Origin: Pseudomonadota bacterium
Lineage (GTDB): Bacteria; Pseudomonadota; Alphaproteobacteria; UBA11222
Assembly: GCA_049323435.1 (NCBI GenBank)
Contig: JBMOMX010000008.1
Coordinates: 40,609 to 104,608 of the forward strand
Length of the DNA: 64,000 nucleotides
Direction: 5' to 3'
Below, in pieces: positions 374 to 12,399 of this stretch. The notes under the pieces are model-generated. The model did not search any database and was not told where the DNA came from. It saw only the letters and a list, made by a program, of their open reading frames with translations. Numbering within the stretch: position 1 is the first letter of the stretch; every line of letters starts with the position of its first letter. The translations under genes were made by a program, and so were the position numbers.

Positions 374-1621
374 TTATGATTTGTTCTTAACATCGGAAAG
401 CCGGTCCCCATCCGCCAGCGGCGCATAGCCGGCCGCCGCGCGCTTTTCATTGAGCGTCAGAAAATCGGCAGCGCGCACCCGTTCCCACAGGCTGTCGCGG
501 TCCGCCGCCAGCGCCTCCACCTGATCGGCGTCATACCAAAGCCGCAGCCCCGTCCCGAAACGCGGCCCCAGCCACTGGTTCAGTGCCGCACAGGCTTTTC
601 CCACTAACGGCAGAACCGTCTGCCGGTGAAACGCCAGATTGGCTTCGCGGTAATTGGCATAGGTATTATCCCCCTGAATGCCCAGCAGCATCGGCGGCAC
701 GCCAAACGCCAGCGCAATTTCACGCGCCGCCACATGTTTTGACTGAATGAAATCCATGTCTTTTGGATTGAACGACATTTCCTTCCAGTCCAGCCCGCCT
801 TCCAGCAGCAAAGGCCGCCCCGCATTTGAGGCGCCCTGATAATTATCCGACAATTCCTGTTTCAGGCGCGCCACCTGATCCTGGCTCAGATTTGGGCTTC
901 CATCCGTACCCTGATAAATCAGCGCGCCCGATGGCCGCGCCCCGTTATCCAGCAGCGCCTTGTTCCACCCGGCGGCCGCATTATGCAAATCAATGCCAAG
1001 CGCTGCCGCTTCAATGGGCGAAAATCCATAATGGTCATTACTGGGATGAAACAGCTTCATATGCAAAATAGGCGCGCGCCCGCGCATGGCGTCCATTTCA
1101 AAACGCACCGATTTGCCGCCCGCTGAATATTCATACGCCGCCGGCCATCCCCGCGCGCCTGGAACCAGTTTCATCCGGTCCGGGCGCAGCGCATATAATT
1201 CACGCGGCGCGCCGCGCACTTCCACCGCTTCAAGATAGGCATTGCCCGAAATCTGCAAAAATCCGAACCAGGCTTCTTTCAGCTCCACCCCGCTTTGCAG
1301 CGGGTTGGGCCGCGCCAGCAAATCCAGCAGCGGATGGGTGTCCAGTTCCTGCTCCCGCCTTCCTGCGCCTTGATACAATATCCACGGCACGGCAGCCGCC
1401 GTTTCGCTGATCATCCGTACACAGCGATAGGCAATGGCGTTGCGGGCAAATCCTTCCTGCGCCAGATCGCCATATTGGCGCGGCGTCCACACGGGCGCGC
1501 CCTGCCCATGCAACGCAATAAGCGCGCCCGCCGCACTTTGCTTTTCATCAAGCTGCGGACGCAGGCCAAGCCTGCGTAATATGCTGAATGGATCCCTCAC
1601 GCTCGCTCCTTTCAAATTCAC
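374..1621 (-). CDS. Phage portal protein (HK97/GTA-type)
   Basis: 415-aa ORF. Size and sequence character match HK97-family portal proteins. Start overlaps the terminase stop (operon). Confidence 0.75.
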   Translation of the reverse strand: MNLKGASVRDPFSILRRLGLRPQLDEKQSAAGALIALHGQGAPVWTPRQYGDLAQEGFARNAIAYRCVRMISETAAAVPWILYQGAGRREQELDTHPLLDLLARPNPLQSGVELKEAWFGFLQISGNAYLEAVEVRGAPRELYALRPDRMKLVPGARGWPAAYEYSAGGKSVRFEMDAMRGRAPILHMKLFHPSNDHYGFSPIEAAALGIDLHNAAAGWNKALLDNGARPSGALIYQGTDGSPNLSQDQVARLKQELSDNYQGASNAGRPLLLEGGLDWKEMSFNPKDMDFIQSKHVAAREIALAFGVPPMLLGIQGDNTYANYREANLAFHRQTVLPLVGKACAALNQWLGPRFGTGLRLWYDADQVEALAADRDSLWERVRAADFLTLNEKRAAAGYAPLADGDRLSDVKNKS

Positions 1622-2958
1622 TATAATCGCTGCACGCGCGGCTCGCCCGCTTCTCCGGTAAGCATCAGTTCAGTTAACGCCCACACCAGCGCGTCCACCC
1701 GGTCCGGGCTCCATCCGGCTGCGGCCCGGTTGAAACTCCGGGTGAATTCCGCCATCTCATCTTCCAGCAGCGGGAATGCCCCGACATGATGCACCCGGCC
1801 CTGTTCATACAGCGCAGATACCGGTTCCGCGCGCGACGCCTTGCCCCGGCTGGCGCGCACAGACCGCACCGGCGCATTGGCGTCCACCTGCCGGATCACC
1901 GCTTCCACCATATCGCCGCCCTGATTGACCTCCGCCACGATCCGGTCCGCTGCAAAATCCCGGAACGCCGCAACGGCACGGCTGGCCCAGATATGCGGTG
2001 AAACTCCCTGTACGGAATAATCGGCCAGCACATAGCCATGCCCATTCCCGCCCAGTCCCGCAACAAGTATCCCGCAAGTGTCGCTATTGGCGGTGCTGGT
2101 TGCAGGCGGATCAACCGCCACCACAATGCGGATCAAATCCGCTGCCGCCGCCACCCGGCAGGCCTCTATCTGTCCCCGGCTCCACAGCGCGTCAGGATTA
2201 TCTTCCAGCAGTTCCGCCAGCAATTCCTGGCGGCCCAGCCGCGTGCCTTCATACTGCGCCGTGATGCGTTCAAAAAATTGCGGCGCCAGATTGGCCGCAT
2301 TGTCATAACTTGTTGCGCGCGACACCCGTATATTGGGATCGGCCAGAAGATCGCGCAGCAGGCGCACCGGGCGCGGCGTTGTTGTAATCACCTGCCTGGG
2401 ATCGGTGCCCAGCCGCAATCCGAATTGCAGCATGTCCCAGGTTTCGCGGCCATGCCGCCATTTGGTTAATTCATCCGCCCACGCCCCGTCAAATTGCGGG
2501 CCGCGCAACCCGTCCGGATCTTCGGCGGAAAATAATTGCGCCTGTGCGCCATTGGGCCAGATCACCCGGCGCTTTGATGCTTCATATTTTGGCCGCGCCC
2601 AGGGCGGCGAAATGGCCAGAATGCCGCTTTCGCCTTCCACCATGACATCACGCGCGGCGCTGATGGTTTCCCCAATCAGCGCCAGGCGCGCCCGCTGCCC
2701 GCGCGCCAGCGGCGTCCGGCCCATAACCGAGCTGCGCACCCATTCCGCACCTGCGCGCGTTTTGCCTGCCCCGCGCCCCCCCAGTAAAAGCCAGCCTACC
2801 CATTTACCTTCCGGGGCCAGTTGATCCTCACGCGCCCAGAATGGCCACAGCCAGTTAATCTGCCCGCGGATGCTTGCCGGCAGCGCGTCAAGAATCTCAT
2901 CCCTCTGCTTTTGCGGCAGCGAGGCGAGCCAGGCGGCGTTGTACTTCGTCCCAGCCAT
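1621..2958 (-). CDS. Phage terminase large subunit (GTA TerL-like, ~445 aa)
   Basis: Walker A-like GGRGAGKTRAG near the N-terminus. C-terminal nuclease-domain character. Overlaps the upstream small ORF and the downstream portal. Confidence 0.8.
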   Translation of the reverse strand: MAGTKYNAAWLASLPQKQRDEILDALPASIRGQINWLWPFWAREDQLAPEGKWVGWLLLGGRGAGKTRAGAEWVRSSVMGRTPLARGQRARLALIGETISAARDVMVEGESGILAISPPWARPKYEASKRRVIWPNGAQAQLFSAEDPDGLRGPQFDGAWADELTKWRHGRETWDMLQFGLRLGTDPRQVITTTPRPVRLLRDLLADPNIRVSRATSYDNAANLAPQFFERITAQYEGTRLGRQELLAELLEDNPDALWSRGQIEACRVAAAADLIRIVVAVDPPATSTANSDTCGILVAGLGGNGHGYVLADYSVQGVSPHIWASRAVAAFRDFAADRIVAEVNQGGDMVEAVIRQVDANAPVRSVRASRGKASRAEPVSALYEQGRVHHVGAFPLLEDEMAEFTRSFNRAAAGWSPDRVDALVWALTELMLTGEAGEPRVQRL

Positions 2959-3441
2959 CTTCCGCCTCCGCTATCATTTCTGGCGCGCCTTGATCCTGTG
3001 CGGGCTTCGCGCCCTGCGTGGCGTCACGCTCCAGCACCGTCAGTTTCTCCAGCGCCCGCGCCAGCGATGTCAGAATATCCGCAGCGCCCTTTTTTTCCGT
3101 CGCGCTCATGCCTGGCTTTTCCGGATGATCCAGATGCTGCTCCAGCTCATCCGCCAGGCGGTTGACAATCCCCATCATCCGCCCCAGCGCCCGTCTGGCA
3201 TTGATATTTTCCTGCGGTTTGGCGCGGCCTTTGCGTGACACGCTGACACTTGCGGGACGCGCTGGCGCCTTGGCGGCCTGTGCCGTAATAACAGGTGATG
3301 GCCGCGCCCACCCGTCGCGTTTGGCCTTTGCATGAATCGTGATTGCCGCCATCCCATGTTTGCGTGCAATCTCCGCCACCGGCACATCGCGCGTATGATA
3401 GTCCCGCGCGACAGAATCCCAGTCGATACTCCGCTGTGTCA
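2897..3441 (-). CDS. Terminase small subunit-like HTH protein (GTA g1-like)
   Basis: ATG at 3441 with AGGGAG RBS. N-terminal HTH (VAEIARKHGMAAITIHAKAKRDGW). 3' end overlaps the terL start. The track ORF extends to 3583, but that extension contains a terminator hairpin, so it is not coding. Confidence 0.45.
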
Positions 3442-3480
3442 TTCCCGCTCCCTGTATAAATTGCGCTGCGTGCCGCCCAT

Positions 3481-3508
3481 AAAAAAAGCGCCCGTTACAC
3501 TGGGCGCT
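3481..3508 (-). terminator. Rho-independent terminator on the minus strand, between the upstream regulator-like gene and the packaging genes
   Basis: Minus-strand RNA: AGCGCCC-AGUGUAAC-GGGCGCU followed by U7. A 7-bp GC stem plus T-run. Lies about 40 nt upstream of the terS-like ATG. Confidence 0.55.
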
Positions 3509-3627
3509 GTTTGTAATCCTGCTGCTGATCATCCCGTGCCGCCCGCCTGTACCAGAATTGGCGGCGGACGCAATTTCGACCATGGATAAATTTATAACTT
3601 ATATCGTTATGATTAGCAAGAAAAAAA

Positions 3628-4479
3628 TTACGTATAATGTAAATTATTTTTTTTGTTCTTATTCAGGGGCGCGGAACGCATGGAATCTGGCTGCGCTTCA
3701 GCGGCCTGCTCCGGCCTGATGCCATAATGCACCGCCAGCAATGACAGCGCGATACCCAGCACCACCTTGCCCGACCGCACCGGCCAGCCCAATTGCTTTT
3801 CGGCCTCGGCCAGCCCGTTCAGATGACAACATACCTGCAACAACACACTGCCCAGATCGGAGCCCACCGCCTGTAACGCTTTCCATACCCGGTCCTTGGC
3901 GCCGATCATGGCGTCATTCATGTTGGCTGCGCCGCCATTGCCGCTGCGTCCTGCATGATTGACCGGCATGCCCCATAGGGCCGTCACCCTGGGGTCCAGA
4001 TTTGCCAGCGTAAAATCCCGCCGCAACCGCTCGCCTGCTGTAAATTGATCAAGGCTTATCAGTGTCTTGCCTTGCCGGTCTTTATGGCGGAACAACCAGC
4101 TCAGCGGGCTTTCCGCATGATTGACCCGGACCATGACCGTGCCGCCCGTTTCTGACTTTATCTCGCCAATATCCAGATCTTGATGCTGGCTGCGAAAGGG
4201 CGAATCATTTGCAGTGGCACGGCGCAGCCTTGCACGCCCCAGCGGCGAAATCACCCATTGCAAGGCCTGGCCAGCCTGCGCCACAATCAGCTCCTCACGC
4301 GACAGATGCGTAAATATTTCCTGCGAAATACACAGAACCGGAGCAGCAAATTTGTTGCGCGCCACAAAAATTCCCAGCCCCCCATCCCCATCCTGGCGGC
4401 CATAGGCCTGGTGTTCCGCCAGCCGCCGCAACGCAGTTTCCAGCAAAGGAAATCTATCACTAATAGGTGCGTTAGACAT
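3628..4479 (-). CDS. Hypothetical HTH-like regulator candidate, co-oriented with and directly upstream of the phage/GTA head genes (possible GafA-type activator)
   Basis: 288-aa ORF, start MSNAPI with GGGGG RBS. C-terminal LGSVLLQVCCHLNGLAEAEKQLGWPVRSGKVVLGIALSLLAVHYG resembles a sigma-region-4/HTH-like segment. 3' end runs into an AT-rich tract. Confidence 0.4.
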   Translation of the reverse strand: MSNAPISDRFPLLETALRRLAEHQAYGRQDGDGGLGIFVARNKFAAPVLCISQEIFTHLSREELIVAQAGQALQWVISPLGRARLRRATANDSPFRSQHQDLDIGEIKSETGGTVMVRVNHAESPLSWLFRHKDRQGKTLISLDQFTAGERLRRDFTLANLDPRVTALWGMPVNHAGRSGNGGAANMNDAMIGAKDRVWKALQAVGSDLGSVLLQVCCHLNGLAEAEKQLGWPVRSGKVVLGIALSLLAVHYGIRPEQAAEAQPDSMRSAPLNKNKKNNLHYT

Positions 4480-4611
4480 ATTACCCCCATACATTGCAGG
4501 TTTTTATTCCTTTTATAGGACTTTTTACTGAATTGCAAGTGAAAGCTATAACCTATAGAGTTAGTTAATGATTTAAATAATCTCATTTTACGTAAATTTC
4601 CGGTTAGCGAA

Positions 4612-5196
4612 ATGACCCTGATGCACAATAAAATCCGCACTTTCCGCAAGCAGCGCGGCATGACCCTGGCGGCGCTGGGGGCAGCGATTGGTCTCACGCC
4701 GCAATCCGTTTCGCGTATTGAAAACGGCAAAATGCGCCTGTCCACGGACTGGATGGTGCGCATCGCCGGGGCTTTGAATGTCAGCCCGCTCGACCTGCTG
4801 GATGCCGGCGCTCCCGGCGGCGCGGAATTAATCGGCGAGGCTGGCGCCGACGGGGCCTGCACGGCGCTCACCCCGCAACTGTTCCGCATGGCCTTGCCAG
4901 GCCCGGGCCAGTTGGTATTACGCCTGGCTCAGGATTGCGGCCCCTATCGCGCGGGCGAATATCTGGTCTGTGCGCGCCTGGCGCAATATGAACTGGTATC
5001 GGCGCTGGGATGCGACTGCCTGGTGGAATTATCCGGGGGCGGACGATTTTTATGCCGTGTGGTGTCGCGCAGCGCCGGCGCACGCGCAACCGCAGTCTTC
5101 ACTCTCGCCGCTCTGGCATCCGGCGGCTGGGTACTGGAAAATCAGTCCTTGGCCTGGATCGCCGCCATCCGCATGCGCCTGCAATTTGTAAGCTGA
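4612..5196 (+). CDS. XRE-family HTH transcriptional regulator (CI/Cro-like) with C-terminal domain
   Basis: N-terminal RGMTLAALGAAIGLTPQSVSRIENGK is a canonical XRE HTH. Divergent from the 288-aa gene across an AT-rich 118-bp region. Confidence 0.75.
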   Translation: MTLMHNKIRTFRKQRGMTLAALGAAIGLTPQSVSRIENGKMRLSTDWMVRIAGALNVSPLDLLDAGAPGGAELIGEAGADGACTALTPQLFRMALPGPGQLVLRLAQDCGPYRAGEYLVCARLAQYELVSALGCDCLVELSGGGRFLCRVVSRSAGARATAVFTLAALASGGWVLENQSLAWIAAIRMRLQFVS

Positions 5197-10672: not shown

Positions 10673-11026
10673 ATAAAATCATTCCCGCAATTGCCATCAG
10701 AACGGTAATCCGGTCTGATAGCGCATGAATATTGCCCCATCCGCCGGATTGGCATTTATGATCAGAAACAGCTTCGCAATCCGAAATCCCGGCGCGCTCC
10801 CGAATTGAAGCAGCCGGTCGGTTACGAAGTGGTGATGAAAATCACAAAGTCAAGATCTGCCGCCGCTGGTTGCAGCAGGCATATTCAGTTTTCCTGTCGC
10901 CACACAGTCCGGCGGCATAACAGAACTTCATCAGACCGACACGGCTTTGTAACAGTCGCTAACTAGAAGTTAATTTGCGGTCATCGCGGAACCCCCCGGA
11001 CTTAACGATAGTTGGAGATTGCTCAA

Positions 11027-12399
11027 TGCGTCAGCTTATTTATTCTACGGCACTCGTCTCTGTGCTTGCATTCTCGCCTGCATATGCGGGAACTTTTGAT
11101 TCCTTTACCCCGCTGGCGGCATCGGTTGCCGGCGGCTCGCTGCCGGAAGACAAGCCGTTTCAGCTTTCATCCCCGGATTTCAGGCAAAAAACCCTCAATG
11201 CCAATGATCTCGGGCCGCAAAATGGCAATGTCAAGCTCGGCGATAATTGGGACATGAACACGCTGAACGAAAACGGCGCACAGGCCGGCCGTTTCTTGTT
11301 TACCCCTTATGAAACCGGGTCCGCCGGGGTTCGCCGCCTCGATGTGCAGACCGGCTTTGCGGAAACCATTGTCGCCAACGGCACGCAGGGTTTTGTTGCC
11401 GGTGATGCCTCACGCTGGACGCCCTTCGGCACCTATTTGACGGCTGAAGAATCCTGGGGCGCCGGCAGCAGCAAGGGCCGTTTGTTCGAGGTGACCGATC
11501 CGCTGGCTCCGGCAGGGAGCACGGGATTTAACGCCCGCACGATTCTGCCGCGCGTCTCGCATGAAGGCCTCGCCTTCGATGCTGAAAACAATCTGTACTT
11601 CATTGATGAGTTCAACAGCGGCAGCATTTACAAATATGTGTCATCCACACCGGGTATCGGCGCTACATATTTTAATGCCGGCGAAACCTATGTCTTGAAG
11701 GCGGATTTAGCGGGCGCAGATGCCACCGGCGCTGCAAGCTGGGTCAAGATCACCAATGCAGATGGCACGGCAGTCAATGCCGCCGCCAATGTGGTGATAG
11801 ATGGCGTGACCCATGTCGATGGCCGTGTGGCGGCCGATCTGGCCGACGGCACCGCCTATAACCGGCCGGAAGATCTTGAGATCAAAACCGTGGGCGGGGA
11901 GCAAAAACTTTATTTTGCCGCCACGGCTTCCAGCACCGGCGGGGCTGGCGCTGTTTTCGCCATCGGCCTGACCAATGCAACCGATGCGAATATCACGCTT
12001 TTTGCTAACAGGAATACGAATAAAAAGGGAACCGCAAATGAGGTTGGCCTGGAATTCCTGAATCCGGACAATCTGGCGATTGATGGATTTGGCAATATTT
12101 ACATCATCGAAGATCAGCCGGGCGGCGCGGCGGATATCTGGTTTGCCTTTGATATCGATTTTGATGGCGTAGCCGAATCATTGGGCCGTTGGGCGTCGCT
12201 CTCCACGCAGGGCGCGGAGCCGACCGGCCTCTATTTCGATCCGTTCCGTAGAAATGTCGCCTATGTCAATGTACAGCACGCCGATAGCGACATTGACCGC
12301 ACGATAATGATTACGGTCATTCCCGAGCCTGTGACGATCAGCCTTCTGCTGGGCGGGCTGGGAATGCTGGGCGGTATGGTCAGCCGCCGCCGCGCCTAA
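11027..12399 (+). CDS. Secreted PEP-CTERM-anchored protein (beta-propeller-like)
   Basis: Signal peptide MRQLIYSTALVSVLAFSPAYA. C-terminal IPEPVTISLLLGGLGMLGGMVSRRRA is a PEP-CTERM sorting signal. Start inferred at the internal Met, not track coordinate 10975. Confidence 0.75.

Follow-up and report, generated by a model that had tools for sequence, protein, structure and literature searches.

A region of 1.8 kb within a 64,000-nucleotide stretch of DNA from an uncultured alphaproteobacterium of the UBA11222 lineage (contig JBMOMX010000008.1, positions 40,609 to 104,608; hereafter the window) is probably the control region of a gene transfer agent (GTA) of the RcGTA type, in which all parts of the switch are linked in cis and form an anti-termination circuit. 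We put the probability of this reading at roughly two in three. A repressor gene, a gene for a GafZ-type regulator, the promoter that this regulator would target and a terminator all lie inside these 1.8 kb. The two regulatory genes are divergent, with just 132 bp between them, and the gafZ-type gene is followed, in the same direction, by packaging genes:

4612 to 5196, forward strand: XRE gene for a putative RogA-like repressor, 194 aa, with a conserved start that may be ATG 4621; the protein has an N-terminal Cro/C1 helix-turn-helix (HTH), then a beta-rich C-terminal domain resembling that of lambda cI
3628 to 4479, reverse strand: gafZ-type gene, 283 aa from ATG 4479; the maximal open reading frame (ORF) has 288 aa from 4494
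2897 to 3442, reverse strand: terS, PHROG 1206 small terminase (3.5e-12 for the 181-aa version)
1621 to 2958, reverse strand: terL, 445 aa (Terminase_6N 2.9e-35, Terminase_6C 2.4e-20)
374 to 1621, reverse strand: portal gene, a 415-aa ORF called as 408 aa in the same species (Phage_portal 1.7e-92; TIGR01537 HK97 portal 1.4e-68)

The original prediction, made from the letters of the window, had described two ORFs here, 3628 to 4494 (reverse strand, 288 aa) and 4612 to 5196 (forward strand, 194 aa), and had guessed that the first encodes a GafA-type regulator of the adjacent packaging genes. Both ORFs are present as described, and the matches to PHROG 1206, Terminase_6N/6C and Phage_portal confirm that terS, terL and portal genes lie downstream of gafZ in the same direction. 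The GTA cluster runs past the window edge. Contigs of the same species carry it onward, through a small ORF, an acyl-CoA dehydrogenase gene, an S78 prohead protease gene and a capsid gene.

The regulator matches Pfam DUF6456 (PF20057) at residues 122-258, over profile positions 1-135 of 136 and with 156.7 bits (cut-off 26.3; E 4.6e-46), and the same domain is present in all 120 homologs among the matches listed. DUF6456 is the annotation found on GafA homologs (PMC9638019, PMC9765227). NCBI holds the same protein as MFZ5834035.1, a "DUF6456 domain-containing protein" of 283 aa; given this length, a GGGGG ribosome-binding site and the start usage in relatives, the true start of gafZ is most likely ATG 4479. 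An AlphaFold model of the 288-aa protein, built with 110 homologs (pLDDT 82.7), shows an N-terminal alpha/beta domain at about residues 11-94 (288-aa numbering) and a helical C-terminal half. The last helices of the model, 228-235 and 242-256, are the segment in which a sigma-region-4-like HTH had been proposed, and the predicted fold does resemble region 4 of sigma factors. Searched against PDB sequences, the family profile had no match, and NCBIfam has no model for the 288-aa protein. The guess of a GafA-type regulator thus agrees with the DUF6456 membership, with the sigma region-4-like fold and with the GTA synteny described below.

More exactly, the protein is the GafZ-type half of GafA, comprising its central and C-terminal part, and not a full-length GafA. 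In the latter an N-terminal DnaA domain-IV-like domain is fused to the sigma-like C-terminus, and the 288-aa protein, with no Pfam hit to a DnaA-type domain and no DnaA domain-IV-like module, lacks this DnaA-like (GafY) domain. Its N-terminal domain is not a fused GafY either, because Rhodomicrobium has a similar long-form GafZ of 280 aa together with a separate gafY upstream; this domain probably corresponds to the central region of GafA. The split arrangement, in which gafY adjoins gafZ, is likewise not found at this locus: tblastn with two GafY proteins gave nothing below E 0.04 in the window, and no gafY lies near gafZ (within 6-8 kb) in the flanks of the related loci L001-L004 and L093-L100. 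In contrast, the same search finds gafY as the immediate upstream neighbour of gafZ in 66 of 78 more distantly related loci (Hyphomicrobiales and Parvibaculales), where no GTA genes follow. With neither a DnaA-like module nor a nearby gafY, the anti-terminator GafZ of Caulobacter is therefore a better functional analogy for this protein than GafA, the self-sufficient activator. Caulobacter GafZ binds between the -35 and -10 elements of the GTA promoter, and RNA polymerase bypasses the terminators of the cluster (PMC11150451). A GafZ acting as a processive anti-terminator would travel along with RNA polymerase and NusA/G/E.

A putative promoter and a predicted terminator that could serve such a protein lie at the end of gafZ and before terS. 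In an alignment of seven loci whose GafZ proteins are 50-64% identical to that of the window, two non-coding islands (4483-4542 and 3555-3659) are as conserved as the best coding stretches. The second of these, and the leader that follows it, contain the following elements:

3555 to 3659, reverse strand: conserved island 2, 105 bp, spanning the gafZ stop codon; putative promoter of the GTA cluster (P_GTA)
3643 to 3627: inverted repeat TTTAC-N7-GTAAt, within island 2
3619 to 3614: putative -35 element of P_GTA, TTGCTA
3611 to 3605: CATAACG, within the 17-nt spacer of P_GTA; the family motif is CGTNACG
3596 to 3591: putative -10 element of P_GTA, TATAAA
3586 to 3566: conserved start region, TCCATGGTCGAAATTGCGTCC
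3480 to 3508, reverse strand: predicted intrinsic terminator in the leader, AGCGCCCAgtgtaaCGGGCGCT then T7, 38 nt before the terS start codon

Identity in island 2 is 0.67-0.79, compared with 0.31-0.5 in the adjoining C-terminal tail of gafZ and about 0 (unalignable) in the downstream spacer. Since the neighbouring GafZ tail drops in identity while the island stays conserved, the conserved "NNLH(Y/N)T" end of GafZ is probably a by-product of DNA conservation. In the island, the -10 element TATAAA is followed by 7 nt and then by ATGGTCGAAATTGCGTCC. Twelve such promoters could be aligned from two lineages, the window clade and a Sphingomonadales type, between which terL is about 50% identical. 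The -35 element reads TTGnnn in 11 of the 12 (TTACAA in L001) and the -10 element TAnnnn, and the distance between them is 17 nt in all twelve, with a CGTNACG-like motif at spacer positions 3-9. At the predicted start, ATGGTCGAA is common to the window clade and L099. Promoter spacers normally vary freely, so that a fixed motif in this position suggests a bound protein. Both promoter motifs are single-copy in the window, with 0 expected by chance, a parallel to Caulobacter GafZ, which has a single target.

Upstream of the -35 element lies the inverted repeat listed above. The 17-bp inverted repeat TTTAC-N7-G(T/C)AAA is found about 10 nt upstream of the P_GTA -35 in the window, L001, L002 and L086-L088, and in relatives a near-identical copy stands upstream of the gafZ promoter (14 of 16 positions identical in L088). 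The form TTTAC-N7-GTAAA is thus conserved in relatives at P_GTA and recurs in their P_gafZ regions. It is not over-represented in the window (13 counted, 9 expected), where its single one-mismatch site is 3627-3643. The repeat may be another operator, or a site for a third factor, for instance GafY or IHF.

The length of the leader depends on the start of terS. The 45-bp spacer between gafZ and terS given in the original prediction is an artefact of ORF calling, in which an in-frame upstream ATG at 3583 inflates terS. Gene callers give terS 180-187 aa in relatives, and the start at 3442 is preceded by GGGAG; with terS starting there, the real gap between gafZ and terS is 185 bp (3443 to 3627). 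The 228-aa ORF reaching 3583 was rejected as over-extended, the upstream ATG being out of frame in relatives. The predicted transcript start coincides with this conserved ATG (3566-3583, ATGGTCGAAATTGCG, MVEIA...), which would open a leaderless mini-ORF conserved over about 6 codons only. A conserved coding leader peptide, MVEIAS, was rejected too, because in relatives the ATG opens only an ORF of 8-39 codons or sits in another frame; a DNA or RNA element is a likelier cause of the conservation.

The leader terminator was found by a terminator scan and folds with -14 kcal/mol. It was judged in each locus by the folding of that locus's own hairpin rather than by covariation, and a hairpin followed by T6-8 is present in all seven window-clade loci (dG -12 to -18 kcal/mol), with stem sequences that differ, a preceding spacer of variable length and 38-128 nt between hairpin end and terS. 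Three of four Sphingomonadales-type loci have it as well, and overall a hairpin with a T-run occurs in 11 of 12 loci. Beyond the seven it was seen in L094, L095, L100 and L083. RNAalifold gave no consensus for the seven terminators, as their stems are not alignable column by column. Folding of the whole 151-nt leader was no better than that of shuffles (z -1.2), the terminator hairpin alone standing out, and Rfam at its gathering threshold found nothing in the window. In three loci, including a contig of the same species, a second strong terminator lies just before the prohead-protease gene. The half-sites in the leader hairpin (GCGCCC) were considered as a counterpart of the Caulobacter ZBE and dropped, since the stems vary and the hairpin lies downstream of the promoter.

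The main rival explanation of these elements is that the protein is a conventional or sigma-like activator, similar to GafA, which recruits RNA polymerase to the GTA promoter, while the hairpin is gafZ's own terminator and no anti-termination takes place. GafA indeed binds the RcGTA promoter and contacts the omega subunit of RNA polymerase via its central region (PMC6363796, PMC9638019). The GafA-Cx construct, which comprises the central and C-terminal parts, has roughly the length of the 283-aa protein, and a hairpin downstream of gafZ is where a gene terminator is expected. However, the only conserved promoter-like island sits upstream of the hairpin, and from the T-run to the terS ATG there are just 38 nt in the window, which are not conserved. 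These two points weaken the explanation. The order of promoter, then terminator, also recurs in Sphingomonadales loci, and a second terminator lies inside the cluster. We consider plain activation unlikely.

The candidate for the control of gafZ itself is the divergent gene. As had been predicted, it encodes an XRE-type HTH protein (HTH_3, E 8.7e-14). In its AlphaFold2 model (pLDDT 86.6) the HTH is followed by a beta-rich domain of about 130 residues. Foldseek relates the model to the lambda-186 hybrid repressor 7jvt (E 1.2e-5) and to 2ho0, a C-terminal fragment of lambda cI (TM 0.61 when normalised to the target), with E values of 1e-5 to 2e-4 for full-length and C-terminal structures of lambda cI. 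Across 31 homologs, no Ser or Lys is invariant in residues 70-194; Pfam Peptidase_S24 is not detected in the protein, and the S24-like fold is assigned from the model. The protein thus combines a Cro/C1 HTH with a LexA/cI-like domain lacking the catalytic Ser-Lys pair, which is the architecture of RogA, a Caulobacter protein of 213 aa with an HTH and a LexA/cI-like domain without catalytic residues, that directly represses gafYZ by binding its core promoter (PMC9632790). A RogA-like repressor is the best reading of the modelled architecture in the light of RogA's description.

The functional link between this gene and gafZ is drawn from synteny. Of the 78 more distant loci, 14 from Hyphomicrobiales or Parvibaculales have a homolog with 29-38% identity in divergent orientation to gafY-gafZ. 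Full-length homologs flank gafZ in complete Sphingosinicellaceae genomes (L100; hhalign E 7.6e-18 over 178 aligned columns) and gafY-gafZ in Rhodomicrobium (hhalign E 9.6e-33), and L095 too has a homolog divergent to gafZ. The other neighbours of these homologs vary among the loci of these lineages. This bears on the possibility that the XRE gene is unrelated to the GTA and is an antitoxin, or a regulator of the neighbouring glutamine-synthetase-like gene. In the HTH, though not beyond it, NCBIfam shows weak similarities to antitoxins of the HipB, HigA or PezA type, and the glnA-like gene adjoins the XRE gene in most close relatives. Yet full-length homologs are divergent to gafZ or gafY-gafZ also where the other neighbour differs (L004, L089, L031, L100), no toxin partner is present, and the 130-aa cI-like domain is conserved; such an unrelated role is very improbable.

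The region between the two genes contains these elements:

4483 to 4542, reverse strand: conserved non-coding island 1, directly upstream of gafZ; putative gafZ promoter (P_gafZ)
4538 to 4533: putative -35 element of P_gafZ, TTGCAA
4519 to 4512: putative -10 element of P_gafZ, CCTATAAA
after the P_gafZ -10: candidate repressor operator, the block AGGAATAAAAACCTGCAAT
4546 to 4558, no strand: palindrome CTATAACCTATAG

The region is AT-rich, as had been noted originally, with 29% GC against 58.5% for the window. Mean pairwise identity in island 1 is 0.68-0.84 (7 loci), compared with about 0.5 for the rest of the intergenic region. The conserved block overlies the -10 element and start of the putative P_gafZ and is most likely the binding site of the XRE protein. 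Island 1 also holds CCTAYA half-sites and a GG-N8-CC arrangement in the register of the Caulobacter RogA site GGAA-N4-TTCC, to which GGAATAAAAACC in the conserved block matches at 6 of 8 positions in the same register; this resemblance to the RogA site is weak evidence.

The inverted repeats proposed earlier as operators fare differently. The palindrome CTATAACCTATAG is present, but neither an above-chance frequency of such repeats nor conservation of the whole palindrome was found: the intergenic region has 2 small inverted repeats where shuffles give 1.9, and 6 of 7 relatives lack the full palindrome at the corresponding place in the alignment. It agrees at 11 of 13 positions with the perfect palindromes CCTACA-N3-TGTAGG that flank gafZ in Sphingosinicellaceae. 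There, unlike in the window, tandem perfect palindromes closely precede the -35 of the promoter that follows gafZ. The TATAGG arm of CTATAACCTATAG is a CCTAYA-type half-site, and these half-sites, which occur overall about 0.45 times per kb, are about 30-fold enriched beside gafZ. Two are found in the XRE-gafZ region of about 150 bp in 6 of 8 window-clade loci, the exceptions being L087 with one and L089, whose extract stops early, with none; in L100, seven of eight flank gafZ. The CCTAYA half-site may therefore be a real operator element, for the repressor or for GafZ.

The linkage of gafZ to GTA genes was proposed originally as a check, and it holds in all eight window-clade loci that extend past gafZ, seven of them in relatives and one on a contig of the window's own species. 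It holds also in four of four Sphingomonadales-type loci and in one IMG/VR contig of the window's clade. The order XRE, gafZ, terS-terL-portal is kept in 7/7 of the related window-clade loci with sequence downstream of gafZ, six of which, like the same-species contigs, have a glnA-like host gene on the far side of the XRE gene. Protease and capsid genes lie further on in L001, L002, L093 and L100. The Sphingomonadales type emerged from a scan of IMG/VR, in which three GC-rich contigs (L095, L096, L099) carry a short gafZ (165-172 aa) directly upstream of terS/terL and portal genes, with terL about 50% identical to that of the window. Homologs of these short GafZ proteins are named Sphingosinicellaceae, Allosphingosinicella and Sphingomonas, and two complete Sphingosinicellaceae genomes have a divergent HTH gene, a DUF6456 gene, a few genes, and then terL, portal, protease and capsid genes.

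A CI-like repressor divergent to a regulator beside terminase genes is also a phage-like layout, and six related IMG/VR contigs are classed as viral. The locus might accordingly belong to an ordinary and possibly defective prophage, as its region for immunity and late control, with the XRE protein as CI repressor and the DUF6456 protein as late activator. Against this, the locus occupies the same chromosomal site, by the glnA-like gene (74-76% identity), in relatives with a GafZ of just 58-64% identity; between repressor and terS there is no integrase and no replication or lysogeny module; and host-type genes are embedded in the cluster. A search of 50,697 phage records gave DUF6456 a single match (L090), which looks like a bacterial contig and not a true phage. 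We regard a prophage as very unlikely.

Taking the locus as a GTA switch, one may propose the following mechanism. Family, folds, synteny and the conserved islands and terminators are what the analysis shows; the repression, the anti-termination and the assignment of proteins to sites are what we infer. The XRE protein, a non-cleavable repressor of the lambda-cI/LexA type, would bind the block over the -10 element and start of P_gafZ and keep gafZ off. Once made, GafZ would load onto RNA polymerase at the GTA promoter in the 3' end of its own gene, the CGTNACG-like motif in the 17-nt spacer being the candidate loading site, in the same position as the Caulobacter element. Polymerase starting there would meet the intrinsic terminator about 100 nt downstream, just before terS. 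Without GafZ, transcripts from P_gafZ or P_GTA, including read-through from gafZ, would end at this leader terminator. Polymerase modified by GafZ would pass both this and the second terminator, ahead of the prohead-protease gene, and would transcribe the packaging and head genes.

Several points weigh against this model. The transcription start site is a prediction, and GafZ binding, transcription and anti-termination are our own deductions. The -10 hexamers lack the canonical final T, and no promoter was predicted at this place by a consensus scan; the motif in the spacer is rich in AT and does not resemble the Caulobacter ZBE (GCGCCCG-CTGGCGC), and the leader terminator is absent from L096. 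Activation in Caulobacter also needs GafY and IHF, and since no gafY is found in the window or within 6-8 kb in relatives, the local circuit may differ. GafA of R. capsulatus is described as recruiting RNA polymerase via omega, not as an anti-terminator (PMC6363796, PMC9638019), and the hairpin could simply terminate gafZ. Finally, the likeness to RogA, GafZ and GafA is drawn from published descriptions, annotation and predicted folds.

Among the known systems, the RogA/GafY-GafZ/CcGTA system of Caulobacter crescentus (Gozzi 2022, PMC9632790; Tran and Le 2024, PMC11150451) shares most of these parts: a GafZ-type DUF6456 protein with a sigma-4-like HTH, a LexA/cI-like repressor without catalytic residues (XRE and RogA being likened by architecture), a candidate binding element within the -35/-10 spacer of the GTA promoter, intrinsic terminators to be bypassed for cluster expression (here predicted) and a first GTA gene with an over-called start codon. 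It differs in that its rogA, gafYZ and GTA cluster are three separate loci, while here the corresponding parts abut and no gafY adjoins gafZ. The terminator here precedes the first gene, where in Caulobacter it follows, and consists of a simple hairpin rather than three 150-bp repeats; GafZ has an extra N-terminal domain, and the spacer motif is unrelated to the ZBE of Caulobacter.

With Rhodobacter capsulatus GafA (Fogg 2019, PMC6363796; Sherlock and Fogg 2022, PMC9638019) the window protein shares the DUF6456 annotation of its homologs, a C-terminal sigma-like DNA-binding region and, as we suppose here, the direct regulation of an RcGTA-type cluster; its 283 aa are about the size of the GafA-Cx (87-382) construct. 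GafA itself is one protein of 42 kDa and has a DnaA-like DNA-binding domain at its N-terminus, which the window protein lacks; the gene for GafA lies away from the cluster, between lipA and guaA, whereas the window gene is directly upstream of terS.

The closest named sequence relatives of the window GafZ (36-52% identity) are in the split gafY-gafZ loci of Hyphomicrobiales, where the gene order is mucR or an HTH gene, gafY, gafZ and sufE. A long-form GafZ of about 280 aa occurs there too (Rhodomicrobium, L031), and the same XRE family stands upstream in some of these loci. A similar order is found in L090 (GenBank MW462191.1, 67124-85735, labelled 'Bacteriophage sp.'): a transcriptional regulator, a DNA-binding protein in the position of gafY, gafZ and a sufE-like sulfur acceptor. 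L090 also has housekeeping genes and a gene annotated Tet(X4), and looks like a bacterial contig in a phage collection.

The Sphingomonadales loci (CP081848.1; L100, L095, L096, L099) resemble the window in having a divergent HTH repressor homolog, gafZ, promoter, terminator and GTA genes, with a homologous promoter architecture. Unlike in the window, their GafZ is short (165-182 aa) and without the N-terminal domain, and L100 has extra genes between gafZ and terL.

In layout only, the locus recalls the Q/PR'/tR' late switch of lambdoid phages, where the gene for the regulator directly precedes the late promoter, a loading site (here a candidate) lies in the promoter, a terminator follows shortly downstream, with terminase and head genes after it, and the terminator would yield a short RNA unless polymerase is modified. 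The window protein has no sequence or fold relationship to lambda Q-type antiterminators, its fold being sigma-4-like, and no pause element was identified. The parallel is one of analogy only.

The protein family, the repressor type and the logic of anti-termination are already published. We found no description of a gafZ adjoining a GTA cluster in the open-access literature; the linked repressor-gafZ-GTA arrangement is nevertheless present in complete public Sphingosinicellaceae genomes. GTA regulation has been dissected in two organisms only, and in both the regulator genes are far from the structural cluster. The 1.8-kb arrangement described here is a minimal cassette that could be moved as a unit for tests of GafZ anti-termination, and the twelve aligned promoters predict sites for GafZ and the repressor. 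Our results suggest that the DUF6456 half of GafA has a conserved role in anti-termination rather than in plain activation. For annotation, the gain is a corrected terS start and names for two "hypothetical / DUF" genes. One may speculate, tentatively and with more doubt than confidence, that the cis-linked cassette is the ancestral late-gene switch of the phage from which RcGTA-type agents descend. This uncultured clade and Sphingomonadales would have kept it, while its parts would have become dispersed in Rhodobacterales, Caulobacterales and Hyphomicrobiales; in the lineages that kept it, the cassette may work without GafY, the CGTNACG motif in the promoter spacer being the loading site of GafZ.

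Some further observations concern the cluster itself. Past the left end of the window, as seen in relatives, the gap between portal and protease genes is a hot spot for insertions (L001 12313-15591; L002 12319-13698; L083 1-1011; L093 5162-6635). L001 has an AAA_15/AAA_21 ATPase, DUF3226 and an acyl-CoA dehydrogenase there; the cargo is DUF2335 in both L002 and L083, while the window's own species carries an acyl-CoA dehydrogenase. A GC hairpin with T7 follows the cargo in L001, L002 and L083, right before the protease gene in the first two. In the P0026 locus an intact XRE/gafZ pair stands before terS, a terL remnant of 217 aa and a Hydrolase_2 gene, so that its GTA appears to have decayed while the regulators were kept. 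Four independent short-read assemblies of the window's species (L084, L085, L091, L092) all break 280-315 bp into terS, a pattern that points to variation between strains or to a repeat a short way into the first GTA gene. Elsewhere in the window, at 10975 to 12399 on the forward strand, a 474-aa PhoX-family protein has a C-terminal hydrophobic stretch followed by RRRA (PEPVTISLLLGGLGMLGGMVSRRRA), resembling a PEP-CTERM sorting signal.

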